Positions 17,579 to 62,116 are shown, numbered from the stretch's first letter. The stretch is DNA of 64,000 nucleotides from a virus (IMGVR_UViG_3300017917_003143:2095-66094); one strand, 5' to 3'. Numbers and translations: made by a program. The notes: generated by a model from the sequence alone, not told the origin.

Positions 17579-17959
17579 ATGGCTTATTCTGACAAAGTTA
17601 TTGACCACTACGAAAACCCTCGCAACGTAGGGAGTTTTGATAAATCTGATGACAGCGTGGGCACCGGTATGGTGGGAGCACCTGCTTGCGGTGATGTCAT
17701 GAAATTACAAATAAAGGTAAACAACCATGGTATCATTGAGGACGCGAAATTCAAAACCTACGGTTGCGGTAGTGCCATCGCATCGTCCTCTCTTGTTACC
17801 GAGTGGGTTAAAGGCAAAACGCTGGACGAAGCCTCAACTATTAAAAATTCAGCGATTGCTGAAGAACTCGCCTTGCCACCAGTCAAAATACATTGTAGCA
17901 TCCTTGCTGAAGATGCGATCAAAGCGGCCATAGAGGATTATCGTAAAAAACATGGTTGA
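17579..17959 (+). CDS. iscU: Fe-S cluster assembly scaffold IscU
   Basis: GAPACGDVMKLQIKV, YGCGSAIASSSL and LPPVKIHCSILAEDAIKAA signature blocks. 126 aa. Confidence 0.9.
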   Translation: MAYSDKVIDHYENPRNVGSFDKSDDSVGTGMVGAPACGDVMKLQIKVNNHGIIEDAKFKTYGCGSAIASSSLVTEWVKGKTLDEASTIKNSAIAEELALPPVKIHCSILAEDAIKAAIEDYRKKHG

Positions 17960-18866
17960 TTGGACCAATTGCGAGGATTGGTTTCAAGAATGCCAACTCG
18001 ACCCTGACAAACACGAGCTTTGGTTGGGTGACAATCCGCCAAATGCGAAAAAAGGAAAACGTGTGTTCTGGGTCAGCCACGAGACTCGCGGCATGGCCAA
18101 CAAAGACAGATGCAAAGATCAGGACTTGATAATTTTTGATTCTGGTGTCGATGACAGTGGCATAGTGAATCCTTACATGTTACACTGGCATCTTTCTGCT
18201 GATGCCAACGCTGTTTACAAATTCACAGACCGCATAAAATATCAAGACTCCGGGTTGGTGTTTGATGCTTTGCTGGGTACCAGAAGACCGCACCGAGACT
18301 TTGTCTGGCAATGGTTTGAAAATGATACTGAGTTAAAAACCGCAGGATACATCACATATCATCGGGTGGCTGGAAACAAACAGGATTTCCATGTGGACCA
18401 GGATGTAGATCTGTCAGCGTTCAAGCGCAGTTCATCGACTGTAGAATATCAAGGAGAGTCTGTGGGTTACTGTTCTATGATACCCACAGAAATTTACAGC
18501 AAGACTTATGTCAGTCTTGTGGCAGAAACATATAAACCAGTCAATGATTGGTCATTTTTTACTGAAAAGATCAGCAAGCCCATGTTGGCGAGACGACCTT
18601 TTGTAGTGATATCCAATAGACATTATCTACGCAGACTGAGATCCATGGGTTTCAAAACCTTTGATAGCATCATTGACGAAAGTTATGATGAGCTACAAGA
18701 TGACACAGCACGATGGTCTGCGGCAATGACACAATTAAAAAAGATAGTCGAGATGCCCAGAGATCATTTGTTAGAACTATCCTCTGATATATTAGATCAC
18801 AATCGGCAGTTGATGAATCAACCTTGGATGAGGATTTTTAAAAATAAATTAAAGGAGTTGCGATGA
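17952..18866 (+). CDS. hypothetical protein, paralog of 50916..52007 (glycosyltransferase-like?)
   Basis: Shares the C-terminal block RPFVVISNRHYLRRLRSMGFKTFDSIIDESYDE with the other paralog's FILFAPPGSLQYLKDYGFKTFDHCWDESYDHE. Confidence 0.55.
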   Translation: MVDWTNCEDWFQECQLDPDKHELWLGDNPPNAKKGKRVFWVSHETRGMANKDRCKDQDLIIFDSGVDDSGIVNPYMLHWHLSADANAVYKFTDRIKYQDSGLVFDALLGTRRPHRDFVWQWFENDTELKTAGYITYHRVAGNKQDFHVDQDVDLSAFKRSSSTVEYQGESVGYCSMIPTEIYSKTYVSLVAETYKPVNDWSFFTEKISKPMLARRPFVVISNRHYLRRLRSMGFKTFDSIIDESYDELQDDTARWSAAMTQLKKIVEMPRDHLLELSSDILDHNRQLMNQPWMRIFKNKLKELR

Positions 18867-19192
18867 TCAATATAACTGAACAAGCGGCTTGCAAAGTCAA
18901 AGAAAATCTATCACGTAGAGGACACGGCGTGGGCATCAAGATAGGAGTCAAAACCACTGGATGCTCAGGCCTGGCCTATACGTTAGAGTATGTAGATGTC
19001 GAGCAAGGAAAAGAGCACTGCATGGCACACTATGATGTCAATGGTGTGCGCATCTATGTAGATCCCAAACATCGCCCTTATCTTGAAGGCATGACCATGG
19101 ATTGGATACGCCAAGGCCTCAACGAAGGTTTTGATTTTATTAACCCCAATGAAAAAGACCGCTGTGGATGCGGGGAAAGTTTCCGTGTATAA
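18863..19192 (+). CDS. iscA: Fe-S cluster insertion protein IscA/ErpA (HesB family)
   Basis: KIGVKTTGCSGLAY and C-terminal CGCGESF cysteine motifs. 109 aa. Confidence 0.85.
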   Translation: MINITEQAACKVKENLSRRGHGVGIKIGVKTTGCSGLAYTLEYVDVEQGKEHCMAHYDVNGVRIYVDPKHRPYLEGMTMDWIRQGLNEGFDFINPNEKDRCGCGESFRV

Positions 19193-41591: not shown

Positions 41592-41617
41592 AAATTATAA
41601 AGTGCCAGAGGAAAAAA

Positions 41618-46365: not shown

Positions 46366-48432
46366 ATGCTGAAAAAATCCACCATTAAAAAACTGTTAGT
46401 TAGCCCTTGGACTGCGCTGATCACATTGGCGCTGATTATTGGATTGAGAGTAGCCGATCCTACTTTTGTAGAAAGTGTAAGACTGCGCTATTTTGATACC
46501 TTGATCACTGCCCAAGAACCCACGACCAATGATATCTACACTGTAAACATCGATGAGGATACTATTGCCAAGTACGGACAGTGGCCGTTTGATCGTCGTG
46601 TGTATGCTAACCTTATTGAAGACTTGTACAAAAGAAATGCTGGTCTAGTCATATTTAATGTTATGATGCCTGAGCGCGATCGGTCAGGCGGCGATGGATC
46701 CTTGGCAGCCACACTCAACGAACTAGATGTCATACTGCCTAACTTGCCTGCAGATCGTATGAAAAATACACCAAGACAGCCGGGCACTGCTGTGATAGGA
46801 GCAGAATTCTCTGATCAGATAGTACAATATCCTGGCATCATAGCCAACATTGACATGCTGGAAAAACGAGCCCGAGGTGTAGGCATAGTGGCTACCTTGC
46901 CTGAAGTGGACGGTGTCAACCGTAGGATGCCTTTGGTCGTGGCAGTGGACGGCAGAGTATATCCCAGCCTGGCCATGGAAGTGTTACGAGTTTCAGCCGG
47001 CGATAGTACCACACAGATCAAGCTCAATGAACTGGGTGTGGAAAAGATGCGCATACCTGCATTTGGCCCCATCGCCACCGACAGCCTGGGACGTATATGG
47101 ATTGACTGGAGCCAGCGCAGTCACAGTGTGTCGGCTGCAAACTTGCCCAAAGATTTTGGTGGTGCTGATGTCATAGTGGGCGTGGCCGCAGGTGGATTAG
47201 GTAATCCTGTGCCCACTCCTCGTGGTGCTGTGTGGCCACATGAAGTACAGGCCGCTGTGATAGCCACAATGTTCAACGGTGTCACGATTGAACGACCTGA
47301 CTATGCTGATGGTGTTGAAATCATATTCATAGCGGTCATAGGATTGATTATTATTGGAATGTCGAGGTGGACTTATGCAGGTATTCTTATATCTATTATT
47401 GGGATCATTGCCCCTATTGTTGCCAGTAGCCTGGCTTACAGTGAATGGCGAATCCTGGCGGACGCGACAGCAAGCACGGTTGGTCTTGTTCTCGTGGCTC
47501 TGCATACTTACGGGGTTAAGTTTGTAAGCGAGTTCTTGCAAAAGCAACAGATCAAAAAACAATTTGGAACTTATCTAAGCCCAGATCTTGTAGCACAACT
47601 GCAACGCAACCCTGATCTACTGGTATTAGGTGGAGACAGTCGTGAGTTAAGTATCATGTTCACAGATGTGCGTGGCTTTACAAGTATCAGCGAACACTAT
47701 GGTAAAGACGTTCAAGGACTTACAAAGATCATGAACCGCTATATGACAGCCATGACTAAAAAGATCTTGGAAAACAAAGGTACATTAGACAAGTACATCG
47801 GTGATGCACAGATGGCATTCTGGAACGCACCCTTGGACAACACACAGCATGCCAAGGATGCTGTAAAAACAGCTTTAGAAATGTTAGGGAGTTTGGATGA
47901 GTTCAATAGAGAAGTTCAAGCAGAAGGCGTACCACCTTTTGGTATGGGCCTTGGGATCAATACTGACACCGTTGTGGTGGGTAACATGGGAAGTGATCAG
48001 CGTTTTGACTATACTTGTCTTGGTGATGGCGTCAATTTGGCTAGCCGACTGGAGGGCCAGAGTAAACCGTACGGTGTCAAAATCGTGGTGGGGGCAAAAA
48101 CTGCTGAATATGTAGCAGACGAATACCTTGTGCTGGAGCTGGATTGTATCGCTGTCAAAGGCAAAAAAGAAGGTGTCAACATCTATACTGTGTTAGGGCG
48201 TATTGATGAGTTAAACATAGCCACCGCTGACATACAGATGCACGAGTCTATGTTGGCGCTGTATCGTCAGCAGAAGTTTGATCAAGCTGCCAAGGCCTGC
48301 AACAACTTGATGGGCCGCTTTGGGGGTGCCATGGATCACTATTATGAAATGTGGATAGAGCGTTGTGGGGAAATGAAGTCTGCTGGCTTGCCCTTAGATT
48401 GGGACGGTATCTATCGAGCAACCAGCAAGTGA
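46366..48432 (+). CDS. CHASE2 sensor domain + class III adenylyl/guanylyl cyclase
   Basis: N-terminal TM with periplasmic CHASE2-like domain. Multi-TM segment. Cyclase catalytic domain (IMFTDVRGFTSISE; KYIGDAQMAFWNAP; metal-binding Asp). Confidence 0.8.
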   Translation: MLKKSTIKKLLVSPWTALITLALIIGLRVADPTFVESVRLRYFDTLITAQEPTTNDIYTVNIDEDTIAKYGQWPFDRRVYANLIEDLYKRNAGLVIFNVMMPERDRSGGDGSLAATLNELDVILPNLPADRMKNTPRQPGTAVIGAEFSDQIVQYPGIIANIDMLEKRARGVGIVATLPEVDGVNRRMPLVVAVDGRVYPSLAMEVLRVSAGDSTTQIKLNELGVEKMRIPAFGPIATDSLGRIWIDWSQRSHSVSAANLPKDFGGADVIVGVAAGGLGNPVPTPRGAVWPHEVQAAVIATMFNGVTIERPDYADGVEIIFIAVIGLIIIGMSRWTYAGILISIIGIIAPIVASSLAYSEWRILADATASTVGLVLVALHTYGVKFVSEFLQKQQIKKQFGTYLSPDLVAQLQRNPDLLVLGGDSRELSIMFTDVRGFTSISEHYGKDVQGLTKIMNRYMTAMTKKILENKGTLDKYIGDAQMAFWNAPLDNTQHAKDAVKTALEMLGSLDEFNREVQAEGVPPFGMGLGINTDTVVVGNMGSDQRFDYTCLGDGVNLASRLEGQSKPYGVKIVVGAKTAEYVADEYLVLELDCIAVKGKKEGVNIYTVLGRIDELNIATADIQMHESMLALYRQQKFDQAAKACNNLMGRFGGAMDHYYEMWIERCGEMKSAGLPLDWDGIYRATSK

Positions 48433-50622: not shown

Positions 50623-50942
50623 GTAAGTTCTTTAACTTTTTCAGCAACCTACGTGCTAACTTTAGTCAGTGGTTGAGCGAGAGCTTGCACACAGTATCAG
50701 CAGAAACTCTGGGCTGGTTGGCAGTGATCTTGATACACGGTGCCACGGTGCCTACATTATTGGCCATACTCACCGGACTCAGTGATCGCACTCCATCAGT
50801 TGATATCATCTTGTTGATGTGGGGCGGCCTGGTGCTGTTGTTTGGTCGTGCAGTGGTGCTCAAAGATTCATTGAACATCATCACCATTGGCGCAGGCTTT
50901 ATCGTACAAGCTGTGTTAATGGCCTTGATTTTGTTCAAGTAA
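50619..50942 (+). CDS. holin-like 3-TM membrane protein
   Basis: ATGA overlap with the lysin stop. 107 aa with three hydrophobic helices. Confidence 0.45.
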   Translation: MSKFFNFFSNLRANFSQWLSESLHTVSAETLGWLAVILIHGATVPTLLAILTGLSDRTPSVDIILLMWGGLVLLFGRAVVLKDSLNIITIGAGFIVQAVLMALILFK

Positions 50943-52007
50943 AGCCCGATCCATATTGGTGCGTAATTCCAGGAGCAGGTCATCCTGGAATTCTTTACTG
51001 AAAAATCTTTTCCTATTGTGTTCGATCACAGGCAAGGCTTGCTGATAGAGATCTTGGAATTTGTCCTGAGACATGTTGGCAAGCTGATCGATCAATTCCA
51101 ACAACAACGACATGCGTTTGGTTGAATCAGTTTCATGATCGTAGCTCTCATCCCAGCAGTGATCAAACGTTTTGAAACCGTAGTCCTTTAGATACTGCAA
51201 ACTGCCCGGTGGCGCAAACAAAATAAAAGGCTGGCTCATGACCATGGGCTTGAATACCTTTTCGGTAAGATAGATTTTGTCAGTGTCAAACAGCGTTTCG
51301 GCTACCAAGTGTACCGCGGAATCCACAGCATCTGGAATGTCAATCTTGGCACTGTATGTTGGGTCCACTTGTGTGCCGTCCCAGTTGTGCCGTATCATGT
51401 TCTGATATTGGCGACAGTGCGCCAGCAATTCTTTTCTATAGATACGTGTTCCGTCCTGGGCACGACTGTATAATAGGAATCTGTGTTGGCAATTGGATTT
51501 GTCAATGGGTGCTAAATCTTGATAATGTTCCCAATGCCGGAACCAGTCACGGGCAGTCAGTCCGTGCCACCAATAGTAACAGTCAACAAATCCATGCTCG
51601 TTTAAGATCCTGATGTCTTGGCTGTTTAACTCACTGTGGCAGATGATGGGCCGATCTTCCATGACTAAACGCATGAACTCAAAAACATCACAGTCATTGG
51701 CATGTTTTTTAAGATTGAATTCTATGGCCTTTCTTTGGTTTTCTCCTTGGATCAGTAGATTTTTTTGGTCACACAGAGTTTTTCTATAAGTATCCATATA
51801 ATTAAGATCCAATGGTTCCTGATCATGCATGACGATCCTTTTGAAGCTGATAAAGTCTTTGTTAAAGTCGGATTGAGTGACTGCAAATGGTTCTAAATTA
51901 TGGAGATCTTTTGCCCCATGTGGGCGGAATATCATCACAAGGTTATTGGTTTTTTCGTGTCCGTATTCATGGACGAAAAAATCGTAAAAGTTATCAACGG
52001 AGAACAT
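50916..52007 (-). CDS. hypothetical protein, paralog of 17952..18866 (glycosyltransferase-like?)
   Basis: Shares the GFKTFD...DESYD C-terminal block and several upstream blocks with 17952..18866. Confidence 0.55.
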   Translation of the reverse strand: MFSVDNFYDFFVHEYGHEKTNNLVMIFRPHGAKDLHNLEPFAVTQSDFNKDFISFKRIVMHDQEPLDLNYMDTYRKTLCDQKNLLIQGENQRKAIEFNLKKHANDCDVFEFMRLVMEDRPIICHSELNSQDIRILNEHGFVDCYYWWHGLTARDWFRHWEHYQDLAPIDKSNCQHRFLLYSRAQDGTRIYRKELLAHCRQYQNMIRHNWDGTQVDPTYSAKIDIPDAVDSAVHLVAETLFDTDKIYLTEKVFKPMVMSQPFILFAPPGSLQYLKDYGFKTFDHCWDESYDHETDSTKRMSLLLELIDQLANMSQDKFQDLYQQALPVIEHNRKRFFSKEFQDDLLLELRTNMDRALLEQNQGH

Positions 52008-52009
52008 AA

Positions 52010-53245
52010 ATGAATATCGGTTTTATTGGCTTAGGTAAATTAGGTTTAGACTGCGCAGAAGTCTTTGCAGAACGCTACTCAGTCTATGGTTATGATATAT
52101 ATCCACGCTACAGCGACACAGTCAAAGTTTGCACCAATGTGGAAGAAGTCATTGACCACAGTGACTGGTTGTTCATTGCTGTACCTACTCCACATGCCGA
52201 AGGCTATGATGGGTCAGTACCGAGCTCACACATGGAACCCCGGGATTTTGGCCATGAAGCTGTCAAGCAAGCCATTGAGTATGTGAATGCCTATGCCAAG
52301 GAACCCAAGCGTGTTGTATTGATCTCTACTGTGCTACCAGGCACCACCCGACGCCACTTTGCTACTCTGTTGGACAAGCGTCACCAGTTCTTATACAACC
52401 CGTATTTGATTGCCATGGGTTCTGTGAAGTGGGACATGGCCAATCCTGAGATGGTAATGATTGGTACAGAAACAGGTGATCCTAGTGAAATGCGTGATCT
52501 CATTGATTTGTACCGACCATTGATGAAAAACAACCCACGCTATGTCACAGGTACCTGGGACGAATGCGAAGCCATCAAGATTTTCTACAACACATTCATC
52601 TCAGCCAAGGTTGGTTTGGTAAACATGATCCAAGACTTTGCCTTAAAAATTGGCAACATCAACGTAGACGTTGTGACAGATGCCTTGGCACAATCCACCA
52701 TGCGTATCATGGGACCCAAGTACATGACAGCAGGCATGGGTGATGCAGGTGCTTGCCACCCACGTGATAACATCGCCCTGCGTTGGTTGGCCGAAGAATA
52801 CGACATTGGATATGACTTGTTTGATACCATCATGCATGCTCGTGAAGTGCAGGCCAAGAACCTTGCGCTGTTCTTGGTAGATCAAGCTAAAACAAACAAT
52901 CTGCCTATCGTGATACACGGCAAAGCATACAAGCCAGATGTTCCCTACTGTATTGGAAGCTATTCTACGCTGATTGGATACTACATCAATGAAGCAGGTT
53001 TCACAGTGAAATACCTGGATCCCTTGGCCGATGACAGCACTGACGTGATCGAAGCTGTCAAAGGTGCTTGTGTATTGCTCATGGCACACAATCGACAGAT
53101 CACATACGGTTACACCGGAGATGTGCGTGATGACACTTTTTATGCACCCATAGAAGCAGGATCTATCATCGTAGATCCATGGCGCAAACTCAATGACATA
53201 GCAGGATACAAAATTATCCATTATGGTAATACAAGAAAAAACTAA
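52010..53245 (+). CDS. nucleotide-sugar dehydrogenase (UDP-glucose/GDP-mannose dehydrogenase family)
   Basis: N-terminal Rossmann IGFIGLGKLGL. VVLISTVLPGTT block. Catalytic Cys region GMGDAGACHPRD resembles GGxCFxKD. Confidence 0.65.
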   Translation: MNIGFIGLGKLGLDCAEVFAERYSVYGYDIYPRYSDTVKVCTNVEEVIDHSDWLFIAVPTPHAEGYDGSVPSSHMEPRDFGHEAVKQAIEYVNAYAKEPKRVVLISTVLPGTTRRHFATLLDKRHQFLYNPYLIAMGSVKWDMANPEMVMIGTETGDPSEMRDLIDLYRPLMKNNPRYVTGTWDECEAIKIFYNTFISAKVGLVNMIQDFALKIGNINVDVVTDALAQSTMRIMGPKYMTAGMGDAGACHPRDNIALRWLAEEYDIGYDLFDTIMHAREVQAKNLALFLVDQAKTNNLPIVIHGKAYKPDVPYCIGSYSTLIGYYINEAGFTVKYLDPLADDSTDVIEAVKGACVLLMAHNRQITYGYTGDVRDDTFYAPIEAGSIIVDPWRKLNDIAGYKIIHYGNTRKN

Positions 53246-53759
53246 ATCCTGGGGTAAATCCTGGGTAGAACCCTGGTGGGTCAGTCATCGTGATTTACCC
53301 TATGTCAATGAGCCATTCAATGATCCAGAAAGCCTGGACCTGTGGCGCAGTCTAGGGTACACACAGACCAGATTCACTGGCGATATGTATGACATGCGTA
53401 ATCCTGAGCCTTCTTGGATAGCACCGTTTCGTTTTGTTTTTCCTTGGTTGCATTTTTCATGGTCAGTGTATCGCATGGGTCCCGGTACTGTGTTGCCCAA
53501 CCACAGTGATACCTATGCTCGATTCAAAGAAATATACAACATCACTGACAGTGACAAGATATATCGTGCCATAGTCATGCTGGAAGATTGGCAGAGTGGT
53601 CACTATTTAGAGATAGATGGCACACCAGTGACCAAGTGGATCGCAGGAGACATTTATATCTGGCAGAATGATGTCCAGCATCTTGCGGCCAACATGGGCA
53701 TGACCGATCGTTATACATTACAAATCACAGGAGTCCCCATTGAAGATCCATTCCTATAA
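53223..53759 (+). CDS. hypothetical protein (cupin-like?)
   Basis: 178 aa. HSDTYARF and GDIYIWQNDVQH segments suggest a cupin/double-stranded beta-helix fold. Weak call. Confidence 0.35.
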   Translation: MVIQEKTKSWGKSWVEPWWVSHRDLPYVNEPFNDPESLDLWRSLGYTQTRFTGDMYDMRNPEPSWIAPFRFVFPWLHFSWSVYRMGPGTVLPNHSDTYARFKEIYNITDSDKIYRAIVMLEDWQSGHYLEIDGTPVTKWIAGDIYIWQNDVQHLAANMGMTDRYTLQITGVPIEDPFL

Positions 53760-54660
53760 CGAGTGGGATCCACTGCGCAGTATCGTAGTGGGTAGCGCAA
53801 AACATGCCAACTGGCCCTCTACAGATCCTGTGTTTTCAAAAGAAAGCGAAAAGACTCTGTGGAAAGAAACTCCTGTGCCCTCAGGGCCTGTGCCACAGTG
53901 GATCGTAGACGAAGCTGAAGCTGAACTAGACGATCTTGCTAAAAAACTACAGCAGTTGGGTGTGGAGGTGCATCGTCCTCAGGAAATAGATTTTGTAGCT
54001 CTGGACGGCATGTATAACTATTGCCCCAGAGATCGATTGTTAGTAGCTGGTACTGCCATAGTTGACCCTGCCATGATGTATCCCTGCAGAGACATGGAGT
54101 TGGCTGCCTACTACGACATAGTCGATAGCTGTGAAAGATACTTGCACATGCCCAGGAACGAAGGCATGGTGTTGGATGCGGCCAATGTCTGTAGACTTGG
54201 GGATACTTGGTTGTACTTGGAATCAGCATCGGGCAACCGTGCAGCCTATGAATGGCTGTGCGACCAGTTTCCAGAGATCACTATAGAGCTCTGCAATTTT
54301 TATGCGGGCGTACACATAGATTCAACCATTGTGCCCTTGAGAGAAGGCTTGGTCTTGGTCAATGCGGCCCGTGTAACGCCCGACACATTGCCCAGTGCGT
54401 TCAAAAACTGGGAAGTGCTGTATGTAGATCACGTGACAGAACAGGGCTTTTATCAGTACCCTTACGCTTCAAAATGGATTGCGTTAAATATGTTAGTGGT
54501 TGATCCTAACACAGTGATCATGGATCAGGATCAAAAGCTATTGATACGTGAGATTGAAAAATACGGAATCACAGTGATACCACACAAATTAAGCCATAGT
54601 CGCACCCTGGGTGGAGGATTCCACTGTGTGACTTTGGATCTATGGAGAGAACATGCTTGA
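53740..54660 (+). CDS. amidinotransferase-superfamily enzyme (GATM/StrB1-like), paralog 1
   Basis: C-terminal catalytic block GGGFHCVTLDLWRE matches the GGxFHC.T.D..R nucleophile motif. TTG start after AGGAG. Confidence 0.6.
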   Translation: MKIHSYNEWDPLRSIVVGSAKHANWPSTDPVFSKESEKTLWKETPVPSGPVPQWIVDEAEAELDDLAKKLQQLGVEVHRPQEIDFVALDGMYNYCPRDRLLVAGTAIVDPAMMYPCRDMELAAYYDIVDSCERYLHMPRNEGMVLDAANVCRLGDTWLYLESASGNRAAYEWLCDQFPEITIELCNFYAGVHIDSTIVPLREGLVLVNAARVTPDTLPSAFKNWEVLYVDHVTEQGFYQYPYASKWIALNMLVVDPNTVIMDQDQKLLIREIEKYGITVIPHKLSHSRTLGGGFHCVTLDLWREHA

Positions 54661-55948
54661 CGCAAATTTAGTAGCACAGATGGTAGAACAAGAGATACGT
54701 TCTGCTGTCAACCAACAGGTCAAAGAAGCAGTGAGCCAAACTGCCTGGATCCAAGATCTTGAGGAACAGATCGTACAATTCGTACAGGACCGTATCACTG
54801 CTCGTTTCAGCAACATTGGCACCATACCAGATCTCGTGACCACAGTAGAAAAAAGTGTGGGCAAGATGTTTGAACAAGGATTCGTTCCGGATCTTGAAAG
54901 TTATGTTGATTCAGTGAAAATACAACAGACCGTGGATCAAGCAGTGGAACAATTTGTTTCCAATACTATAGACTCCTTGACCTTGGATCCGCAATGGGTC
55001 AAGAAAATTGAAACTTTAGTCGAACAAAAAATAGCAGAGCGTCTGGTACATCGCATCAGAGATCTTGATGTCAGTGATGAGATGCAAAAAGTATTGCTCA
55101 CACACAAGGAAATAATCCTTGACGAGCTGAAGAAAGATTTTAACTCAACTGGTATCGCAGATCAATCTACAGATTTACAGCTCACAGTCATGGACGGTGT
55201 AGTGGTAGTCGAGCATGAAACAGTCACACATGATCTCACAGTAGAACGCAACAGCGTACTCAAAGGCGATGTGCTGATACAAGGCAGCCTGGGCGTACAA
55301 GGAAAAATCAACACAGACAACGAAACCTGGCACGAACTCAGTGAACAAGTTGGTCGAGTCACATATGATCGTATCAAAAACGACTTTGCCAAAGAACTGA
55401 TCGATACCGTGGTAGAATCTACCAAGGAAGGTATCGATGTTGCCAACATCACCGTGGATGGAGAACCTTTCGTGACTGGTGAGCGCCTGAGCCACGGTAT
55501 AACAAAAAGCAATCTGAAAGAAGTAGGCACCTTGGAATCGTTGGCTGTCAAAGGAACAGCCAACCTGCATGATACCATGCATGTGGTCAAGAATAGGGTG
55601 GGTATCAATACCGAAGACCCAGATTCAGCCCTGGCTATCTGGGACGAAGAAGTCAATGTCAGCGCAGGCAAGCTCAGCAAGAATGTTGGCTTTGTTGGCA
55701 CAGGAAGGAAACAAAATCTTGTGTTAGGAACCAATAGACAGAACCATATCGAGATCGATGCAGAAGGACTGACTACTATACAACGATTACGTATAGGCCG
55801 CAACAACATCTCCTGGTCCACAGAAGTGCCCAACTACAGTGGAACCAAAGGCGACATAGTGTTCAATCTCAATGTCGCGCCCGACGCACCTTTTGCCTGG
55901 GCCTGTCTTGGTGCATTCCGTTGGCAAGCGTTAAAGGCAGCTCGATGA
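54653..55948 (+). CDS. hypothetical protein (possible fibrous structural protein)
   Basis: 431 aa. Coiled N-terminal half and beta-rich Gly/Thr/Asn C-terminal half. Confidence 0.45.
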   Translation: MLDANLVAQMVEQEIRSAVNQQVKEAVSQTAWIQDLEEQIVQFVQDRITARFSNIGTIPDLVTTVEKSVGKMFEQGFVPDLESYVDSVKIQQTVDQAVEQFVSNTIDSLTLDPQWVKKIETLVEQKIAERLVHRIRDLDVSDEMQKVLLTHKEIILDELKKDFNSTGIADQSTDLQLTVMDGVVVVEHETVTHDLTVERNSVLKGDVLIQGSLGVQGKINTDNETWHELSEQVGRVTYDRIKNDFAKELIDTVVESTKEGIDVANITVDGEPFVTGERLSHGITKSNLKEVGTLESLAVKGTANLHDTMHVVKNRVGINTEDPDSALAIWDEEVNVSAGKLSKNVGFVGTGRKQNLVLGTNRQNHIEIDAEGLTTIQRLRIGRNNISWSTEVPNYSGTKGDIVFNLNVAPDAPFAWACLGAFRWQALKAAR

Positions 55949-56499
55949 GAACCTGTTGGATCATAGCAGACGATTTTGCCAGTCCACACATTGAGCCTGA
56001 ACAAATAAAAAAAATAGCACCTGTGTGGGGTTCCTGGCGTACCTGGCGTGCCTGGCACACAGATAATGTGCTGTGTGACGATTTACCCAAGGCAAAAGAA
56101 CTAGTACAACGTGCTTTCCATTCTGTCTGTAATTTTTATACAGCCAACAAGAACTTTGCCGAACTAGGCAGACTCAATAAAATCAATCTCTATGAAGGAG
56201 AATTTCCTGGAGAACTAGATCATCGTGAACAAATCATAGCCATGCACCTTGTTGCTGAGAACAACGATTTGGTGTTGTTGTTGGGATTTGATTTGACCGA
56301 TAAAAAATTTGATGACAAGTTTGAAAGTCACAAACATCTAAACTACATCAATGCTTTTAGAGCTACTCTCAATACCTATCCAGAAACCCAATGGGTACTG
56401 ATCGATCATCCAGGAGAGGTGTCCAAAAAAATAACGCCGCCAAATCTAACAAAAGATAGTTTTGACAGCGTTATACAGTTGTTGACTGCTAATTCTTAA
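55945..56499 (+). CDS. hypothetical protein
   Basis: ATGA overlap with the upstream stop. Contains a WRTWRAWHT segment encoded by three tandem 9-bp repeats. Confidence 0.45.
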   Translation: MRTCWIIADDFASPHIEPEQIKKIAPVWGSWRTWRAWHTDNVLCDDLPKAKELVQRAFHSVCNFYTANKNFAELGRLNKINLYEGEFPGELDHREQIIAMHLVAENNDLVLLLGFDLTDKKFDDKFESHKHLNYINAFRATLNTYPETQWVLIDHPGEVSKKITPPNLTKDSFDSVIQLLTANS

Positions 56500-56801
56500 G
56501 GTACTATAGTAAAGTTTTGATTGATATATGATGTTGGGTTACTAGCGAACCAAGCATTCCAATCAGATATAAAAGTTTGAGCCGCAGTTGCATCTTGCCA
56601 AAGTCTGGTAGCTGTAAAAAGTCCAGATGTTGGAGTAGGAACCGTTGTTCCTGGATTAGATGGAGACCAATCTGGAATATTTGTGATTATTCCAGCATCT
56701 TTATATGGCTTCAAAAGAGTCAGAATTTTCTGGGCCGCGGCATCTCTGCTTGGACCAGTTGCTGAGTAATCGTATACGACTTGTGTGGTTGCTGTTGCCA
56801 T
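56496..56801 (-). CDS. hypothetical small protein
   Basis: 101 aa. Minus-strand AAGGAAG RBS. Minus-strand TATAAATA motif 21 nt upstream of the start. Confidence 0.5.
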   Translation of the reverse strand: MATATTQVVYDYSATGPSRDAAAQKILTLLKPYKDAGIITNIPDWSPSNPGTTVPTPTSGLFTATRLWQDATAAQTFISDWNAWFASNPTSYINQNFTIVP

Positions 56802-56886
56802 TTTGTTTCTTCCTTTATGAATATTTATACCAAAACTACCAGTTTTGATACTTGACTGTTAATGTTATTTATAGTAAAATTATCCA

Positions 56887-57915
56887 ATGAATACTACAAA
56901 ACGCATCGGTTTTTGCTGTAAATGGATTGATGATCCTAGCGAAACAGCTGGCCGCAAACTCACTACAGAAAGTCGTGATCTAAACGGGCGTTCAACTACC
57001 ATGCGTTGGTTGCGTGAGCACCCTGAGGAAGCTGAACAACGCCAGTGGGACATCATGAATCACAATGCTCGAGCCGCGCTGAACATGGTCGAGCGTGTGG
57101 GCAATCTACCTGAGCATCTGCGCCTGGTACGCTTGGGCAGTGAAATGCTACAGGGCTACACCGAGCCCAACTGGATCGACTGGTGGCAACAAGCAGACAT
57201 CCAACGTCATCTAGAACAGATTTTCGCTCCTGTGGGTGCTCGTGCTAGAGAACTGGGTGTGCGACTCAGCTTCCATCCTGGGCAGTTTTGTGTGTTGGCA
57301 TCTGCAGATGATGGTATCGTAGAGCGCAGTATTCTTGAGTTTGAATATCATGCAGACATGGCTCGTTGGATGGGCTACGGCAAAGAATGGCACGATCATG
57401 GATTCCATATCAATGTTCACCTAAGTGGCAAGGGCGGTCCTGAAAAGTTCCTGCGAACCCTTGGCAAACTTTCTCCTGAGGCCCGCAACCTCATAACTAT
57501 CGAAAACGACGAGATATCAAATGGTTTGGACATTACTCTTCTTGTGGCTGATCGTGTGGCTCTTGTGCTGGACGTTCATCACCATTGGGTCAACACCGGC
57601 GAGTACATCTCGCCAACGGACGCTCGTGTTCAGCGTGTGGTTGAGTCTTGGCGTGACACTCGCCCTGTTATGCATTACAGTGTTAGTCGCGAAGATATTC
57701 TTGTTGATCATGATCCCGGACTTCGCCCAGATCTTAGTGGACTTCTTGCACGAGGTTATAAAAAACAGCAGTTACGGGCACACTCCGACTTCTACTGGAA
57801 TCACGCTGTAAACGAGTGGGCGGCAGACTTTACACAAATTGCCGACATTGAATGCGAAGCCAAGGGTAAAAATCTAGCTCGTGACGGATTTGTGAAATTT
57901 GTAAACCTAGCATGA
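56887..57915 (+). CDS. uvdE: UV damage endonuclease UvdE
   Basis: Collinear UvdE blocks VRLSFHPGQFCVLAS, INVHLSGKGG, ITIENDE and VLDVHHHW. Confidence 0.8.
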   Translation: MNTTKRIGFCCKWIDDPSETAGRKLTTESRDLNGRSTTMRWLREHPEEAEQRQWDIMNHNARAALNMVERVGNLPEHLRLVRLGSEMLQGYTEPNWIDWWQQADIQRHLEQIFAPVGARARELGVRLSFHPGQFCVLASADDGIVERSILEFEYHADMARWMGYGKEWHDHGFHINVHLSGKGGPEKFLRTLGKLSPEARNLITIENDEISNGLDITLLVADRVALVLDVHHHWVNTGEYISPTDARVQRVVESWRDTRPVMHYSVSREDILVDHDPGLRPDLSGLLARGYKKQQLRAHSDFYWNHAVNEWAADFTQIADIECEAKGKNLARDGFVKFVNLA

Positions 57916-58208
57916 TTAGTAAAGAAAATTTTCAAGCCACTTGGTCCTACATCGTGAGAGATCACGAATCGTGGCCTTTAAGGTTCTGGCTGGAAGTATT
58001 AGCGTGGGCTATGAGTATTGGTGCCGCTGTCTTGTTTGCGCTGACTGTACCAAATATTCCGTTTATCTTGTATCTGACCATCACTGTCAGCGGATGTGCC
58101 ATATATGCCTGGGCCGCTTGGACCCGAGGCAGTGTTGGCATGTTGGCCAATTATGTGTTGTTGACGATAATTGACTCAGTGGGACTGGCCCGGGTTATTT
58201 TTTCTTAG
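57912..58208 (+). CDS. small 3-TM membrane protein
   Basis: 98 aa with three hydrophobic helices. ATGA overlap with uvdE. Confidence 0.45.
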   Translation: MISKENFQATWSYIVRDHESWPLRFWLEVLAWAMSIGAAVLFALTVPNIPFILYLTITVSGCAIYAWAAWTRGSVGMLANYVLLTIIDSVGLARVIFS

Positions 58209-58416
58209 TTCTGGCAGTCTTGGCTCGTACAGCAGGCTTCTTCTCACCAGCAGGTTTTTTGGCGGCTGGTTTTTTCTTGGGTTCGGCTGCTGGCTCTATA
58301 TACTGTGTGGTCATTGGTACTGTGCCCACTGTGGACTGTGGTGCTTCGACCTTGTAAGGTGCTTCGGGTGTAGTTTTAGGTTTCGAAACAAAAAACTTTT
58401 TAAGAAATGTCAACAT
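58195..58416 (-). CDS. lysine/alanine/proline-rich basic protein (histone H1-like repeats)
   Basis: C-terminus PAAEPKKKPAAKKPAGEKKPAVRAKTARTKKK. Strong minus-strand RBS AGGAGA. Confidence 0.55.
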   Translation of the reverse strand: MLTFLKKFFVSKPKTTPEAPYKVEAPQSTVGTVPMTTQYIEPAAEPKKKPAAKKPAGEKKPAVRAKTARTKKK

Positions 58417-58507
58417 TTTTATCTCCTGTGTTGGTCAACTATTTAACGCCAATCCTTAAAAATACATTATAATGGACACCTAAAAACCACTCACTAAATA
58501 CTTTCCA

Positions 58508-58777
58508 ATGAACGACACACTTTTTAAGCTCTATATAATTGATGAGTTTCTGAAAAAAACACAGGAACATAGAAAAATTTTAATCCAGGAGTTAATCGAC
58601 GGGGCTTGCGACCCAGTGATCAAAAAGCGTCGATTCAGGATGTTAAGAAACTTGTCTGAGTACGAGTCATCAGTTATAAAAAAGATTGCTGATTTTGAAA
58701 CAGATGATATTCGAGACCTGCTTTGTCCTGATATTTTCGATTTTGAAATTGAGTTTTTACTAGATCGATCAGCATGA
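58508..58777 (+). CDS. hypothetical protein
   Basis: 89 aa acidic ORF. Confidence 0.4.
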   Translation: MNDTLFKLYIIDEFLKKTQEHRKILIQELIDGACDPVIKKRRFRMLRNLSEYESSVIKKIADFETDDIRDLLCPDIFDFEIEFLLDRSA

Positions 58778-59922
58778 ATAAAATATCTCAGGCTAATTTA
58801 TTCTTTACTCCGACATTATTGAGTTGGTATGGTCGCGACACCGAGTATGAAGCTGACATTCTGAGATTCAAAGGATTCGATCAGTACAATTATCTAGTAG
58901 AAATAAATCGCATGTTTTCAAACGGTCCAAAAGGACAGCCGTTGGATCGTACCGGAAACATACATCTTCCACTCAAATACGATACACGCCGCCCTTGGAA
59001 ATTTATCAACACCCCTATGAGTTTAGAAGACGCTTTGTCTGCCCGAGTGTCTGATCTTTTGTCTCGTGGCGTCAAAGTCAATTTGTTATGGAGCGGAGGG
59101 ATCGACTCGACCACCATGGTCAATGCTTTTTTATCCAATGCCCAAGACCACAGTCAGTTACGGGTTCTATACTCACCTTACTCGAGTTACGAGCATAGAG
59201 AATACCTAACAGATTTTCTGCCCAAGTTTCCAGCGGTTGAACTAGTAGACATCAGCGGGGATGTTTATCTCAATCAGCAGTTTGACGGAATTTTTGTCAC
59301 CGGAGACACCGGAGACGAAACCCACGCCAGCATGGATGAAAGCTTCTTGGCAGAATTTGGTTATGATGTGCTGTCACAACCCTGGCGAGACTTTTTCTTC
59401 AAAAGAACACAGGATGAAAAGTTCATTGAATTCTGCGACACATATTTTAGCTGGGCAGGTCGCCCCATCGACACTGTGCTCGAAGCAAGATGGTGGTTCT
59501 ATATCAACTCTAAGATGTATTGTATGCTGGCAACAAAGTTGTCTTTCTTTACCGATTATAAAAATTTCTCGCCCGACATGGTGCACGGTTTTTTTGATTG
59601 TGATGAATTTGAAAATTACATATCTCACAATGTGGACCGTATCATGACCACACCAGATTATGCGTCGTGGAAGCAAGACCTTAAAGATTACTGTAGGAAT
59701 TTTGACGGATTCGATCAATGGGCCAAAGAAACCATAAAGAACGGAAGTTCCCAGTTGCACGCCTACATTTATAAAAAGACCGTGCTCAACGATCAGCGAT
59801 TTATTTTCATCCTCAACGATGGAACACGGGTACACACACCAAGTTTGCCACTGTTGAGCCGCAAAGAATTTAATAATCGTTACGGAAATAGTCTGGACTA
59901 TTTGTTAAATGACCCAATTTAA
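58774..59922 (+). CDS. PP-loop ATP pyrophosphatase (asparagine synthase-like / QueC-like)
   Basis: SGGIDSTT PP-loop motif in LLWSGGIDSTTMVNAF. 382 aa. Confidence 0.6.
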   Translation: MNKISQANLFFTPTLLSWYGRDTEYEADILRFKGFDQYNYLVEINRMFSNGPKGQPLDRTGNIHLPLKYDTRRPWKFINTPMSLEDALSARVSDLLSRGVKVNLLWSGGIDSTTMVNAFLSNAQDHSQLRVLYSPYSSYEHREYLTDFLPKFPAVELVDISGDVYLNQQFDGIFVTGDTGDETHASMDESFLAEFGYDVLSQPWRDFFFKRTQDEKFIEFCDTYFSWAGRPIDTVLEARWWFYINSKMYCMLATKLSFFTDYKNFSPDMVHGFFDCDEFENYISHNVDRIMTTPDYASWKQDLKDYCRNFDGFDQWAKETIKNGSSQLHAYIYKKTVLNDQRFIFILNDGTRVHTPSLPLLSRKEFNNRYGNSLDYLLNDPI

Positions 59923-60913
59923 ATTCAATGCCCCTTGGGACACTCTCAAACATACCTGGGTCGGTTGCACTTACGGTCCGGAGTTTTTCCAGCCCATACG
60001 CAATTCCAAGATACGAGAGTCTTTGCAAAAAATCGTACAAGAAACAGAAGAAGATTATCAAACATTGATTTCTACCCTGACCACATTTGGCATCAAGGTA
60101 TCACGTCCTGTGATCGACTCCAATCTTACGATCATGGACTATATCAACGATCAAGGAAAATTAAATTTCCAAGATTCAAAAAGTTTTACTCTGATACCCA
60201 GACCTCCCATGCAACCTCGAGACAGCATGTTGGTAATCGGTGATCAAGCGATATCCACTCTTGAAGAGTCTTCGTGGTTTTACCCTGACTTGGAAAAATC
60301 GCCCTTGCCGTTTGATGCACCCTTGGTCACAGTGGTCGGAAAACATGTCATAGTTGATTGCAGGGATCATCCGTGGTTGGCAGAATATATACAGCAAAGG
60401 TTTCCAGATCGCAAGGTGATTCCTGTTTATATCGGCGGGCATAACGATGCTGTGTTTTGTCCAGTCAAACCAGGAGTCATTATCAGTACCTATCATCACG
60501 ACAACTACACTGACACTTTTCCTGGCTGGGAAGTCAAGTATATTGAAAACCAGAGTTGGAATGCCATACCTGGATGGAGAAAGTTTAAACATTCCAATGT
60601 TGACAAATGGTGGGTGCCTGACGCAGACAACAATCCTGAATTTGCGAATTTTGTAGACACCTGGTTGAGTCAATGGGTGGGCTATGTCAAAGAAACTGTG
60701 TTTGATGTCAATATGTTGCAAATCAACGAACACACTGTGCTGGTCAACAATTATAATCAGGAGATGTTTGATTTTTTTAAAACACATGGCATTGAAGCCA
60801 TAGTGACGCCCTTCCGTCATAGATTTTTTTGGGATGGTGGGATACATTGTATCACTGGAGACATATACCGAGAAGGAGAAGCCGATGTGGCATTCATTAA
60901 CGCCCAAGGGTAA
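59909..60913 (+). CDS. amidinotransferase-superfamily enzyme (GATM/StrB1-like), paralog 2
   Basis: C-terminal DGGIHCITGDIYRE catalytic Cys block. Overall collinear with 53740..54660. Confidence 0.6.
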   Translation: MTQFKFNAPWDTLKHTWVGCTYGPEFFQPIRNSKIRESLQKIVQETEEDYQTLISTLTTFGIKVSRPVIDSNLTIMDYINDQGKLNFQDSKSFTLIPRPPMQPRDSMLVIGDQAISTLEESSWFYPDLEKSPLPFDAPLVTVVGKHVIVDCRDHPWLAEYIQQRFPDRKVIPVYIGGHNDAVFCPVKPGVIISTYHHDNYTDTFPGWEVKYIENQSWNAIPGWRKFKHSNVDKWWVPDADNNPEFANFVDTWLSQWVGYVKETVFDVNMLQINEHTVLVNNYNQEMFDFFKTHGIEAIVTPFRHRFFWDGGIHCITGDIYREGEADVAFINAQG

Positions 60914-61409
60914 GATACCTTATGTGCCTAAATGGAATCTGTGGTGCAAAATATCCCCAGTGATCACAGTGGGTGATGATGTCCTTGATGCTGATCGATT
61001 GGGAGAGTTTGGATCAGACCTACACGGATTTGAAGAGTTCAAGATATCAATACTGTATGACAACCAGGTTCTGTATTCAGGAACGTTTGATCAACACCAG
61101 CCCATAGTTGTTGATGTAGATTTATTAGACGATAAAGAAAATACAGATCATGTACTGTGCATCGGACTTGAGGGCAAGACTGACGATCACAGTTGTTTTC
61201 ATCAGGGCAAAAGCGTTTCATTGGCCGCGAAAATCAACCTAAGCATAGAACAGATGCCCTTGGATCTCCATGTCATGGCAACAGGTATAAAAACCATCGC
61301 AGGCGAAAACGGCGTACAGAATTTTTCTATTAGCACACCTATCTATCGTTGGCTACTGAAAAATCATGAGCATATAACGGCTGATTTATATTCGATATAT
61401 AAAGAATGA
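60885..61409 (+). CDS. hypothetical protein
   Basis: ATG preceded by GAAGGAGAAG within ORF 60834..61409. 174 aa. Confidence 0.45.
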   Translation: MWHSLTPKGKIPYVPKWNLWCKISPVITVGDDVLDADRLGEFGSDLHGFEEFKISILYDNQVLYSGTFDQHQPIVVDVDLLDDKENTDHVLCIGLEGKTDDHSCFHQGKSVSLAAKINLSIEQMPLDLHVMATGIKTIAGENGVQNFSISTPIYRWLLKNHEHITADLYSIYKE

Positions 61410-62116
61410 CCCTATTTTTATACATCCTGGTGATGACACATATCACCATAGCCTGTGTTACCCTTTATTTGCATCGTAGCCAAGCTCATCGTGGCGTCAC
61501 GTTTGACCCACGTGTGAGTCATTTCATGCGTTTTTGGCTGTGGTTGACCACAGGCATGGTTACCAAACAATGGGTAGCCACACATCGCAAACATCATAGA
61601 TTCACCGACGCAGAAGGCGATCCGCACAGTCCTAGAAACGAAGGCATCTGGCAAATCTTGCTGGGCGGTGCCTTTTACTATGCCTGGGCCGCAAAAGATC
61701 GGGCCATGGTCGAACAATACGGAGCAGGAACACCCGATGATTGGATGGAACGCAACATATACACTCCATTCAATTGGTTGGGTGTGACACTAATGTTCTT
61801 TATCAACTGCATGATCTGGGGATGGGCTTGGGGGTGGTTGCCTTGGCTATGGCAGATGATCTGGATTCCGCTATGGGCCGCAGGAGTCATAAACGGGCTT
61901 GGACACTGGTGGGGCTACCGCAACACACAGACCCGAGACTATTCAACCAATATAGTACCTTGGGCGTTTTTTATCGGCGGCGAAGAACTGCACAACAATC
62001 ACCATGCTGATCCTGCCAGTCCCAAACTCAGCCAAAAGCGTTGGGAATGGGATCTGGGTTGGACCTATATCCGTATTTTAGAACGCTGTAAATTGGCTAC
62101 ATTACGGACAAACTAA
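61406..62116 (+). CDS. membrane fatty-acid desaturase (delta-9/stearoyl-CoA desaturase-like)
   Basis: Three His boxes HRSQAH, HRKHHRFTDAEGDPHSP and HNNHH with SCD-like spacing. Multiple TM helices. Confidence 0.7.
   Translation: MTLFLYILVMTHITIACVTLYLHRSQAHRGVTFDPRVSHFMRFWLWLTTGMVTKQWVATHRKHHRFTDAEGDPHSPRNEGIWQILLGGAFYYAWAAKDRAMVEQYGAGTPDDWMERNIYTPFNWLGVTLMFFINCMIWGWAWGWLPWLWQMIWIPLWAAGVINGLGHWWGYRNTQTRDYSTNIVPWAFFIGGEELHNNHHADPASPKLSQKRWEWDLGWTYIRILERCKLATLRTN

Follow-up and report, generated by a model that had tools for sequence, protein, structure and literature searches.

A close described parallel to the locus reported here is found in the Synechococcus phage S-SCSM2R, a T4-like cyanophage in which an oxygenase and amidinotransferase gene pair (corresponding to genes C and D below) sits in a neighborhood that also encodes five glycosyltransferases together with a radical SAM enzyme and a short aminotransferase of the DegT family, and in which an amidinotransferase gene of a second type (corresponding to M) adjoins KdsA, KdsB and a GT24. 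The amidinotransferase and oxygenase genes of this phage were read by its authors, without experiments, as "antibiotic synthesis genes", and the product of one of them, ORF266, has been found in the virion proteome (PMC12801897). Campylobacter phage CP220 carries an amidinotransferase beside two nucleotide-sugar-transferase-like genes. A marine contig (L098) groups counterparts of genes B, C, and D below with short DegT and FolE genes, in the order B-C-shortDegT-FolE-D. Phages Bellamy and HTVC008M encode nucleotide-sugar dehydrogenases orthologous to B below; adjoining these are PP-loop synthetases of NadE type, a carbamoyltransferase, and GT25/GT4 glycosyltransferases.

The locus described here comes from an uncultured freshwater jumbo phage with a contig of approximately 343 kb, from which a stretch of 64 kb (the window, meaning the whole of the DNA analysed) was taken. 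A first-pass annotation had proposed that six genes lying in a 10-kb part of this window (A, B, C, D, L, and M; Table 1) form a single modification pathway. All six ORFs appear with identical coordinates in a mechanical ORF list, and most of the earlier family assignments stand; the region also contains unrelated genes such as that for the endonuclease UvdE. The six genes do not, however, form one conserved unit. The region comprises two co-located modules, a core of A, B, C, and D and an optional accessory module, K-L-M-N, to which L and M belong. The core is kept, in unchanged order, in about 74–82 of 83 related loci, whereas the K-L-M-N set was found in only four other loci (on three contigs), all of which were retrieved via other queries.

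Table 1. Features of the two modules and of the locus carrying the paralog of A.
Feature	Coordinates	Strand	Length	Assignment or remark
A	50916..52007	(-)	363 aa	predicted sequence-orphan GT-B glycosyltransferase, GT10-fucosyltransferase-like
B	52010..53245	(+)	411 aa	predicted divergent NDP-sugar 6-dehydrogenase, UDP-glucose/GDP-mannose dehydrogenase family
C	53223..53759	(+)	178 aa	small 2OG/Fe(II)-oxygenase-like protein (double-stranded beta-helix/cupin)
D	53740..54660	(+)	306 aa	TTG start; predicted StrB1-type L-arginine-dependent amidinotransferase
E	54653..55948	(+)	431 aa	overlaps stop codon of D
F	55921..56499	(+)	~184-192 aa	after D (or E)
UvdE endonuclease	56887..57915
K	58508..58777	(+)	89 aa	always upstream of L
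L	58774..59922	(+)	382 aa	predicted AsnB-synthetase-domain-type PP-loop ATP pyrophosphatase, without glutaminase domain
M	59909..60913	(+)	334 aa	divergent second amidinotransferase-clade enzyme, coupled to L
N	60834..61409	(+)	~175-191 aa	after M
A paralog (C-terminal nucleotide-binding half)	17952..18866	(+)		between IscU and IscA
IscU	17579..17959			NifU_N 2.6e-54
IscA	18863..19192			Fe-S_biosyn 7.6e-16

A is transcribed divergently from B, with a gap of 2 bp between the two start codons, and start and stop codons overlap at B/C (23 nt), C/D (20 nt), D/E (8 nt), K/L (4 nt), and L/M (14 nt). These overlaps, and the recurrence of the A(-)/B/C/D order in related viral contigs, argue that the arrangement is not due to chance; synteny among closely related genomes is taken as weak evidence for shared function. 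F comes after E, or directly after D where E is absent, in about 35 related loci, and is a possible fifth core member; it has 267 homologs, none of them annotated. Membership of E is uncertain, as the gene occurs in 31–32 of the related loci, about one third, and gave no significant family or phage match in Pfam, PHROG, NCBIfam, and further searches. K accompanies L, M, and N in L003/L010, L084, and L085, and N stands behind M in every locus bearing L-M. No family match was obtained for K, nor for N in Pfam, PHROG, and NCBIfam searches. In L085 B is missing while A, C, D, and F are still there, such that sugar oxidation is not obligatory for the C-D pair. The wider surroundings are a mosaic of metabolic genes, including isocitrate lyase, a fatty-acid desaturase, and a cyclase, with MetK in relatives.

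The earlier assignment of B as a UDP-sugar dehydrogenase is upheld by the N-terminal and central Pfam domains, both above their cut-offs (UDPG_MGDP_dh_N, 3.2e-14; UDPG_MGDP_dh, 7e-15), and by matches to phrog_9148 ("UDP-glucose dehydrogenase", 2.8e-85) and to UDP-glucose dehydrogenases in the PDB (5e-16). UDPG_MGDP_dh_C reaches 17.6 bits (cut-off, 30), and TIGR03026 scores 141.5 bits, under the curated NCBIfam cut-off of 189.8. The motifs GLGKLG (at residue 7), EAIK (Lys190), and GACHPRD (Cys249) align with those of UDP-glucose dehydrogenase, GACHPRD lying opposite GGSCFPKD. Sequence identity between B and its phage orthologs is 56% for Bellamy and 46% for HTVC008M.

A had been described as glycosyltransferase-like, in agreement with its predicted GT-B fold, in which the second of two Rossmann-like domains, the C-terminal one, carries the nucleotide-sugar site. 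Structural modeling indicates that A is a GT-B glycosyltransferase whose nucleotide-binding half is GT10-like, and its named viral structural neighbors are GT10 fucosyltransferases. By sequence A matches no curated glycosyltransferase family (Pfam and others), and none of 32 A-family members matches the Pfam GT10 model (Glyco_transf_10). The GT10 motif is FxxxFENSxxxxYxTEK; in A the segment YLTEK occupies residues 246–250, with T248, E249, and K250 invariant. The A model is further matched by a phage protein of 788 aa in BFVD that bears the name "UDP-glucose/GDP-mannose dehydrogenase, N-terminal", and this connects A with B in the manner of a Rosetta stone. The reported paralog of A between iscU and iscA is likewise present (blastp, 36% identity over 113 aa, E 4e-14), and has no family match of its own.

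C had been called a cupin; it is more exactly described as 2OG/Fe(II)-oxygenase-like, with a predicted double-stranded beta-helix/cupin fold. All of 23 C orthologs retain H94, D96, H153, and R163, matching an HxD/E...H triad with a basic residue about 10 positions downstream, and in an alignment with the 2OG dioxygenase AtsK the distal His and the Arg both find their counterparts. Twelve of the 23 orthologs match Pfam Asp_Arg_Hydrox (best 2.7e-5), while C itself scores E 0.04–0.055 against curated family models. C is always paired with D.

The GGxFHC-type C-termini noted previously are present in both D (...LGGGFHCVTLDLWREHA) and M (...WDGGIHCITGDIYREGE), and the two proteins are indeed paralogs, though remote ones (blastp, 20% identity over 311 aa, E 6e-10). 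D matches inosamine-phosphate amidinotransferase (PDB 1bwd) over residues 5–303 at E 1.1e-63, followed by HsvA (3e-31) and by SxtG and AGAT (about 1e-27), and its catalytic residues D98, D146, H192, D194, and C296 are conserved. Judging from these alignments, D is a genuine StrB1-type amidinotransferase. Its orthologs share the start MKIHSYNEWD, as read in D from the TTG codon. IMG/VR holds 285 relatives of D, of which 80 were kept (65–91% identical, contigs up to 364 kb). M is matched by HsvA (5.9e-7) and StrB1 (2.2e-5), mainly in its C-terminal part, and retains all catalytic residues (D105, D136, H178, D180, and C314), with the Asp of DAAN replaced by Asn or Gly in some M-type orthologs. 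Its 663 homologs (cluster representatives at E<=1e-3) are all without annotation. The first-pass annotation had allowed that the two proteins might prove to be deiminase-type hydrolases, a candidate that finds no support here, as the PDB matches of both are amidinotransferases with no deiminase among them. The closest cellular relatives of D are 34–43% identical and lack B, C, and A beside them. In bacteria the relatives of D adjoin SbnA/SbnB (diaminopropionate synthesis) in about 20 of 74 loci and a protein of ~1400 aa, NRPS-like by eye, in 38 loci. From likeness to StrB1 alone one cannot therefore deduce that D acts on a sugar or cyclitol, and a sugar acceptor is not assured.

L carries the PP-loop motif previously recognized (SGGIDS, residues 107–112), and its model fits the AsnB synthetase-domain fold with the SGGxDS PP-loop present. 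The suggestion that L is QueC-like is not borne out, since homology to QueC does not extend beyond the PP-loop and the protein is of AsnB type instead. The N-terminal Ntn glutaminase domain of AsnB was not found in L, and no similarity to PDB entries was detectable by sequence. Beta-lactam synthetase and carbapenam synthetase are among its closest structural counterparts, and on the strength of its modeled fold L is a predicted carboxylate-adenylating amide synthetase of the AsnB-synthetase type.

In the proposed pathway B would oxidize an NDP-hexose at C6 to a uronic acid, as suggested by its family membership and by the retained Cys249 and Lys190, and C, acting as a 2OG/Fe(II) oxygenase, may hydroxylate or oxidize the sugar or a partner. 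D would transfer an amidino group from L-arginine via Cys296 to a primary amine, yielding a guanidino group, a mechanism proposed because StrB1 and AGAT are its homologs. The finished sugar would then be attached by A to an acceptor glycan or macromolecule. Where the accessory module is present, L may adenylate a carboxylate, either the uronate from B or a guanidino acid from M, and condense it with an amine or ammonia, with M carrying out a second amidino-group reaction. The locus had been read as one for an amidino/guanidino- or amide-decorated sugar; the enzyme families of B, D, M, and A stand, and sugar tailoring is a reasonable idea, the product itself being something we infer. That the core and accessory modules together make and transfer a tailored sugar is quite possible and the best of the readings considered, and is put forward tentatively; the overlaps and constant order of the core genes, the return of such gene groupings in distant phage lineages, and the BFVD protein connecting A with B count in its favor. 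Candidate targets are a host envelope glycan, virion proteins, and DNA, with a host or virion glycan somewhat favored. A more specific version, in which A places a uronic-acid-derived residue bearing a guanidino (N-amidino) group, with an amide-linked guanidino group in addition in phages that carry K-L-M-N, on virion proteins or on the phage's own DNA, is unlikely. If true, such a guanidino-uronate-type sugar would be of a type not known from any virus, and could serve as a shield against host defenses. Against the tailored-sugar reading, no sugar aminotransferase that might supply the amine for D turned up in the window, nor at distances of up to 10 kb from D in the related loci.

The genes may also belong to no single pathway, each being an auxiliary metabolic gene in its own right within a variable island. 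In that case D and M, perhaps together with C and L, would synthesize or transform free arginine-derived guanidino compounds, such as derivatives of polyamines or guanidino amino acids, or would redirect the nitrogen and arginine/ornithine metabolism of the host, with A and B working separately on sugars. The amino-acid-derived contexts of the bacterial D relatives, the small-molecule enzymes HsvA, SxtG, and AGAT as next-best PDB matches, the persistence of C-D where B is absent, the optional nature of L-M, and the metabolic mosaic of the neighborhood are all consistent with this. Both amidinotransferase types are nevertheless found inside glycosyltransferase or sugar-nucleotide clusters in three unrelated phage lineages, and the translational overlap of the core and the fusion of an A-like domain to a UGDH domain speak against independence, which is regarded as rather doubtful.

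Hypermodification of the phage DNA, with A a DNA glycosyltransferase for a uronic or N-decorated sugar or with decoration of a 7-deazaguanine-type base, appears decidedly improbable, despite several suggestive associations. Bacillus phage SP-15, whose DNA carries glucuronate, encodes a UGDH homolog. UvdE lies downstream of the core in 75 of 83 loci, and there is a report (bioRxiv 10.1101/2023.12.21.572611) of phage DNA glycosyltransferases that add uronic sugar acids. A sister lineage has B-C-shortDegT-(D) in a conserved module with GTP cyclohydrolase I and a 492-aa protein bearing a TGT-like DSGGFQ motif. The 492-aa protein, however, was negative in Pfam, PHROG, and PDB-profile searches, and neither a preQ0 pathway or DpdA system nor any DpdA/TGT-like, FolE, or short-DegT gene occurs in the 64-kb window of the ~343 kb contig or at distances of up to 10 kb from D in 80 related loci. 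Nor were QueC/D/E, a pyrimidine hydroxymethylase, or a DNA methyltransferase seen in the window, whose single radical SAM protein has only a weak QueE-like PHROG match, and L is AsnB-like rather than QueC-like. Still less expected is action of K-L-M-N on a peptide or protein, L forming an amide or lactam on K or another protein and M altering arginine, ornithine, or lysine side chains, a reading judged very improbable. The small conserved ORF K does always lie before L, and L lacks a glutaminase domain and resembles structurally two synthetases that form intramolecular amides; lasso-peptide cyclases and beta-lactam synthetase are AsnB-like amide/lactam-forming enzymes. The fold superfamily of M (pentein) also includes enzymes that modify peptidyl-arginine. 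K, however, is conserved over its full length with no recognizable leader/core organization, no protease or RRE-type partner was found, M matches small-molecule amidinotransferases and not peptidyl-arginine deiminases, and the M-type gene of S-SCSM2R adjoins Kdo synthesis genes.

Among known systems, A resembles GT10 alpha-1,3/4-fucosyltransferases and the T4 DNA glucosyltransferases in its GT-B fold, yet has no sequence match to curated glycosyltransferases. L differs from asparagine synthetase B, beta-lactam synthetase, and TsnB9 in its missing N-terminal glutaminase domain and in that an amidinotransferase-like gene always comes after it. D resembles StrB1 of streptomycin biosynthesis in its full-length alignment, its catalytic Cys, His, and Asp residues, and its GGGFHC.TLD C-terminus, but is phage-encoded, shorter (306 vs. 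348 aa), and not surrounded by inosamine pathway genes, its nearest bacterial relatives having diaminopropionate-synthesis neighbors and not aminocyclitol genes. The clusters of Bellamy and HTVC008M lack an amidinotransferase, and their PP-loop proteins, being NadE-type, are not orthologous to L; as here, an orthologous dehydrogenase has glycosyltransferases and an amide-forming, ATP-dependent PP-loop enzyme as its neighbors, such that the pairing of uronate-forming and amide-forming enzymes recurs, lending independent support to the earlier idea of sugar oxidation combined with ATP-dependent amidation. S-SCSM2R differs in its T4-like cyanophage backbone, in having no A-type transferase, and in a UGDH located far from its C-D pair. 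Its ORF308-309 and ORF266-267 nonetheless provide an orthologous C-D pair (33 and 34% identity), with C matching the "2OG-Fe(II) oxygenase" ORF308, likewise upstream of an amidinotransferase, and an M-type protein (ORF266, "glycine amidinotransferase", 30%). Duplicated amidinotransferases, considered unusual for a virus in the first-pass annotation, are thus only partly so, as this cultured phage also has one of each type in a single genome, there embedded among sugar enzymes.

The first-pass annotation had read six genes as a single pathway for an amidino/guanidino- or amide-decorated sugar, or for a QueC-like base modification. These are a glycosyltransferase gene (A), a sugar-nucleotide dehydrogenase gene (B), an oxygenase-like gene (C), two amidinotransferase-type genes (D and M) and a PP-loop enzyme gene (L). 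All of these open reading frames and the motifs cited for them are present, at the positions tabulated below. Overlaps of 4-23 nt join B to C, C to D, D to E, K to L and L to M, a spacing that suggests co-transcribed blocks. Because the starts of A and B are so close, each promoter must sit within the coding sequence of the other gene; a promoter scan found promoter-like sites to be no more frequent than in shuffled sequence. There are 285 relatives of D in IMG/VR, the best 80 of which are 65-91% identical and reside on contigs as long as 364 kb. Within 83 loci examined, D is accompanied by C (82 loci), B (79), a UvdE-type UV-damage endonuclease gene (75) and A (74), and E and F each occur with D in about a third. 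Among contigs recovered through D just one carries L together with K and N, and true orthologs of M are found in approximately 10 loci. Every occurrence of L (L003/L010, L084 and L085) has K upstream and M and N downstream, the core of L085 lacking B. These co-occurrence counts resolve the proposed pathway into a core that is conserved (A to D, perhaps with F) and an optional K-L-M-N module, so that the linkage of A through D stands while the single six-gene unit does not. No functional tie between UvdE and the core is evident.

Positions of the genes of the locus, of other features of the window and of features in related loci
Feature	Location	Strand	Remarks
A, predicted GT-B glycosyltransferase	window 50916-52007	-	
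A/B start codons	window 52007-52010	A -, B +	divergent, 2 bp between; arrangement kept in related loci
B, NDP-sugar dehydrogenase family	window 52010-53245	+	
C, 2OG/Fe(II)-oxygenase-like	window 53223-53759		
D, StrB1-type amidinotransferase (putative)	window 53740-54660		
E	window 54653-55948		no known family
F	window 55921-56499		no known family
UvdE-type UV-damage endonuclease	window 56887-57915		Pfam 3e-30; after core in 75/83 related loci
73-aa ORF	window 58195-58416	-	C-terminus very rich in lysine and alanine (..KKKPAAKKPAGEKKPAVRAKTARTKKK)
K	window 58508-58777		
L, AsnB-type PP-loop enzyme	window 58774-59922		
M, second amidinotransferase-type	window 59909-60913		
N	window 60834-61409		
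Radical SAM protein	window 10352-11434	-	
IscU, IscA	window 17579-19192		A paralog (glycosyltransferase-like) between them
Auxiliary genes	window 25438-26649, 40464-43280, 45568-48432, 61406-62116		isocitrate lyase; CsgG-like secretion/lipoprotein component with SH3 domain, then FecR-like protein; TerC-like membrane protein; CHASE2-nucleotide cyclase; fatty-acid desaturase
Half-length DegT-like genes	L098:6650-7255; L001:9296-9883		39% identical to each other
492-aa protein, TGT-like DSGGFQ motif	L098:778-2256; loci L168-L247		heads module with x156, x360, often GTP cyclohydrolase I; at least 80 aquatic viral contigs

The best PDB match of protein D is StrB1 (1bwd), aligned over the full length (E = 1.1e-63), with weaker matches to HsvA, SxtG and glycine amidinotransferase. 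The catalytic residues Cys296, His192 and Asp146 are kept along with the guanidinium-binding Asp98 and Asp194, and D is to all appearances a bona fide amidinotransferase. M matches HsvA in the PDB search (5.9e-7), retains all five of these active-site residues and, judged by its sequence (20% identity to D, E = 6e-10), is a distant paralog of D, bearing out the earlier call of two paralogous members of the amidinotransferase superfamily. A deiminase or hydrolase identity, which the first-pass annotation had set out as part of a refutation of its pathway, is unsupported for either protein, as their PDB matches are to amidinotransferases only. Representatives of the M family are without exception named 'hypothetical'. 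Among phages, amidinotransferase annotations exist for Campylobacter phages and one cyanophage, and to our knowledge they were never assigned a function.

B belongs, as first proposed, to the UDP-glucose/GDP-mannose dehydrogenase family, with the Rossmann motif, Lys190 and Cys249 in place; it does not reach the curated NCBIfam cut-off and is thus a divergent member. The HxD...H...R pattern of C (H94, D96, H153 and R163) is invariant across 23 orthologs, 12 of which match the Asp_Arg_Hydrox 2OG-oxygenase family, and the 2OG dioxygenase AtsK aligns with the distal His and Arg. Searches of A by sequence (Pfam, NCBIfam, PHROGs and PDB profiles, plus scans of 32 members of its family) matched no known family. 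Structure prediction alone gave an answer: the confident model (pLDDT 89), whose named neighbours among predicted viral structures are GT10/fucosyltransferase proteins, identifies A as a predicted GT-B glycosyltransferase. L possesses the PP-loop SGGIDS and lacks a glutaminase domain. Family and phage searches yielded no informative homolog of E, F, K or N.

The window comes from a jumbo-phage-like genome. Its genes include those for a DnaB-type helicase and a Toprim primase, both subunits of ribonucleotide reductase, an ATP-dependent ligase, ClpX and isocitrate lyase, as well as a CsgG-like protein and IscU/IscA. A 343,632-bp JGI contig carries protein A with exactly the same sequence, and no close cultured relative turned up when the 10-kb region was compared by megablast with 50,697 phage records. 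None of these genes is mentioned in the 'Moraphage' paper (PMC12619734). The phage may provide Fe-S cluster assembly of its own to radical SAM enzymes. The 73-aa reading frame, which overlaps the end of a membrane-protein gene (57912-58208), may encode a small basic nucleic-acid-binding protein or may be spurious. In relatives, the neighbourhood (L085:6406-7503; L084:12902-14977) also holds genes for an S-adenosylmethionine synthetase and a GNAT acetyltransferase, and for a bifunctional cytidylyltransferase/mannose-6-phosphate-isomerase-type cupin protein, which likewise hint at sugar-nucleotide chemistry in the island.

An alternative reading would assign the locus to DNA hypermodification, of a base or a deazapurine. 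It draws on the gene order of a marine contig (L098), where the 492-aa DSGGFQ protein is followed by three unknown genes, B, C, a short DegT-like gene, GTP cyclohydrolase I and D. The 492-aa gene is common to 80 IMG/VR loci, mostly with the neighbours x156 and x360, and its family has homologs (34%) in the Pseudomonas jumbo phage PA5oct; FolE is present in 22 of the 80, and B and C are inserted in just 6-9. This module may represent an undescribed DpdA-like DNA-modification system. Assignment of the 492-aa protein as a TGT failed in Pfam, PHROG and PDB-profile searches; tblastn supplied the sole TGT link, a weak hit on a 'TGT domain-containing protein'. By hhalign, x360, the 360-aa gene before B in the sister lineage, is not a homolog of A. 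Genes of this type (492-aa, FolE, short DegT-like) are found neither in the window nor near D in its own lineage, and the module is a lead for the sister lineage rather than evidence for this window. The deazapurine option lacks support: L is linked to QueC by a 40-residue PP-loop match and nothing else, and such a role for L was rejected on its fold, which is not QueC-like, and on the absence of partner genes from the window and from the vicinity of D. A half-length (195-207 aa) DegT/DnrJ/EryC1-type aminotransferase-like family lies near C and D in marine phages.

Among cellular proteins the nearest relatives of D are 34-43% identical and occur without A, B or C. SbnA/SbnB-like proteins, 40-47% identical to annotated ones, adjoin these relatives in about 20 of 74 bacterial loci, and a ~1400-aa protein, NRPS-like by eye, does so in 38. 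SbnA and SbnB synthesise diaminopropionate, and with such neighbours the StrB1 similarity of D is no predictor of a sugar or cyclitol acceptor. The bacterial loci (L093-L167) suggest a widespread, apparently undescribed route to a guanidinylated diaminopropionate-type building block; the hosts of their StrB1-like genes include cyanobacteria, Halieaceae, Hyphomicrobiaceae, Streptomyces and many others. The top 'bacterial' matches to D from genome collections, with 62-69% identity, lie on contigs of phages that were binned into MAGs and share the A/B/C/D/UvdE synteny. These contigs (L088, L089, L090, L091 and L092, the Haliscomenobacter sp. EUL_031 MAG among them) reflect either mis-binning of phage DNA or, as a weak hint, Bacteroidota hosts.

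Enzyme families, conserved catalytic residues and gene linkage are direct observations; the sugar chemistry first envisaged is plausible, its product standing as a proposal. B would form an NDP-uronic acid, and C would hydroxylate or oxidize the sugar or its partner. D would take up an amidino group from L-arginine as a Cys296 intermediate and then guanidinylate an amine, and A would transfer the finished product. Where present, L would adenylate a carboxylate, perhaps the uronate or else a guanidino acid that M supplies, and form an amide. Neither the window nor the surroundings of D in this lineage contain a sugar aminotransferase. The GT10-like neighbours of A and the many envelope-related genes nearby (CsgG-like, FecR-like, SPFH, TerC and cell-wall hydrolase) make a host-surface or virion glycan slightly more likely than DNA as the target.

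The enzyme set is real, conserved and so far uncharacterised. A putative StrB1-type amidinotransferase is tightly paired with a small 2OG-oxygenase-like protein, and in most cases the two are accompanied by a dehydrogenase predicted to form a uronate and by an orphan GT-B transferase. Hundreds of contigs from an abundant freshwater jumbo-phage lineage, as yet uncultured, carry the pair, which recurs in unrelated marine phages. A guanidino- or amide-decorated sugar, were it the product, would be new viral glycobiology and could provide a new masking of virions, host surfaces or DNA, and the genes involved (A-D, optionally K-N) are few and well enough defined for direct testing by heterologous expression.

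Phage islands combining sugar-nucleotide and glycosyltransferase genes are already known. The T4-like Synechococcus phage S-SCSM2R has orthologs of C and D as a pair (33% and 34% identity), set among five glycosyltransferases, a short DegT-family aminotransferase and a radical SAM enzyme; it also has an M-type enzyme (30% identity), which adjoins KdsA, KdsB, a GT24 and 2OG oxygenases. The M-type protein was found in the virion proteome, and the authors labelled the genes 'antibiotic synthesis genes' without experiments (PMC12801897). The neighbours of the amidinotransferase in Campylobacter phage CP220 are radical SAM enzymes and two nucleotide-sugar-transferase-like genes. B has orthologs in Synechococcus phage Bellamy (56%) and Pelagibacter phage HTVC008M (46%) that directly adjoin a NadE-type PP-loop synthetase (Pfam NAD_synthase, 3e-47 and 1e-50), with GT25/GT4 transferases and a carbamoyltransferase also alongside, lending independent support to the earlier pairing of sugar oxidation with ATP-dependent amide formation. 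A and B are themselves linked by BFVD entry A0A6J5TB28, a 788-aa uncultured-phage protein named as UGDH that the A model also matches and in which an A-like glycosyltransferase seems to be naturally fused to a B-like dehydrogenase. Taken together, the contexts in S-SCSM2R, CP220 and Bellamy/HTVC008M and this apparent fusion make sugar tailoring the best-supported reading, and the enzyme set is best filed among phage sugar-tailoring islands.
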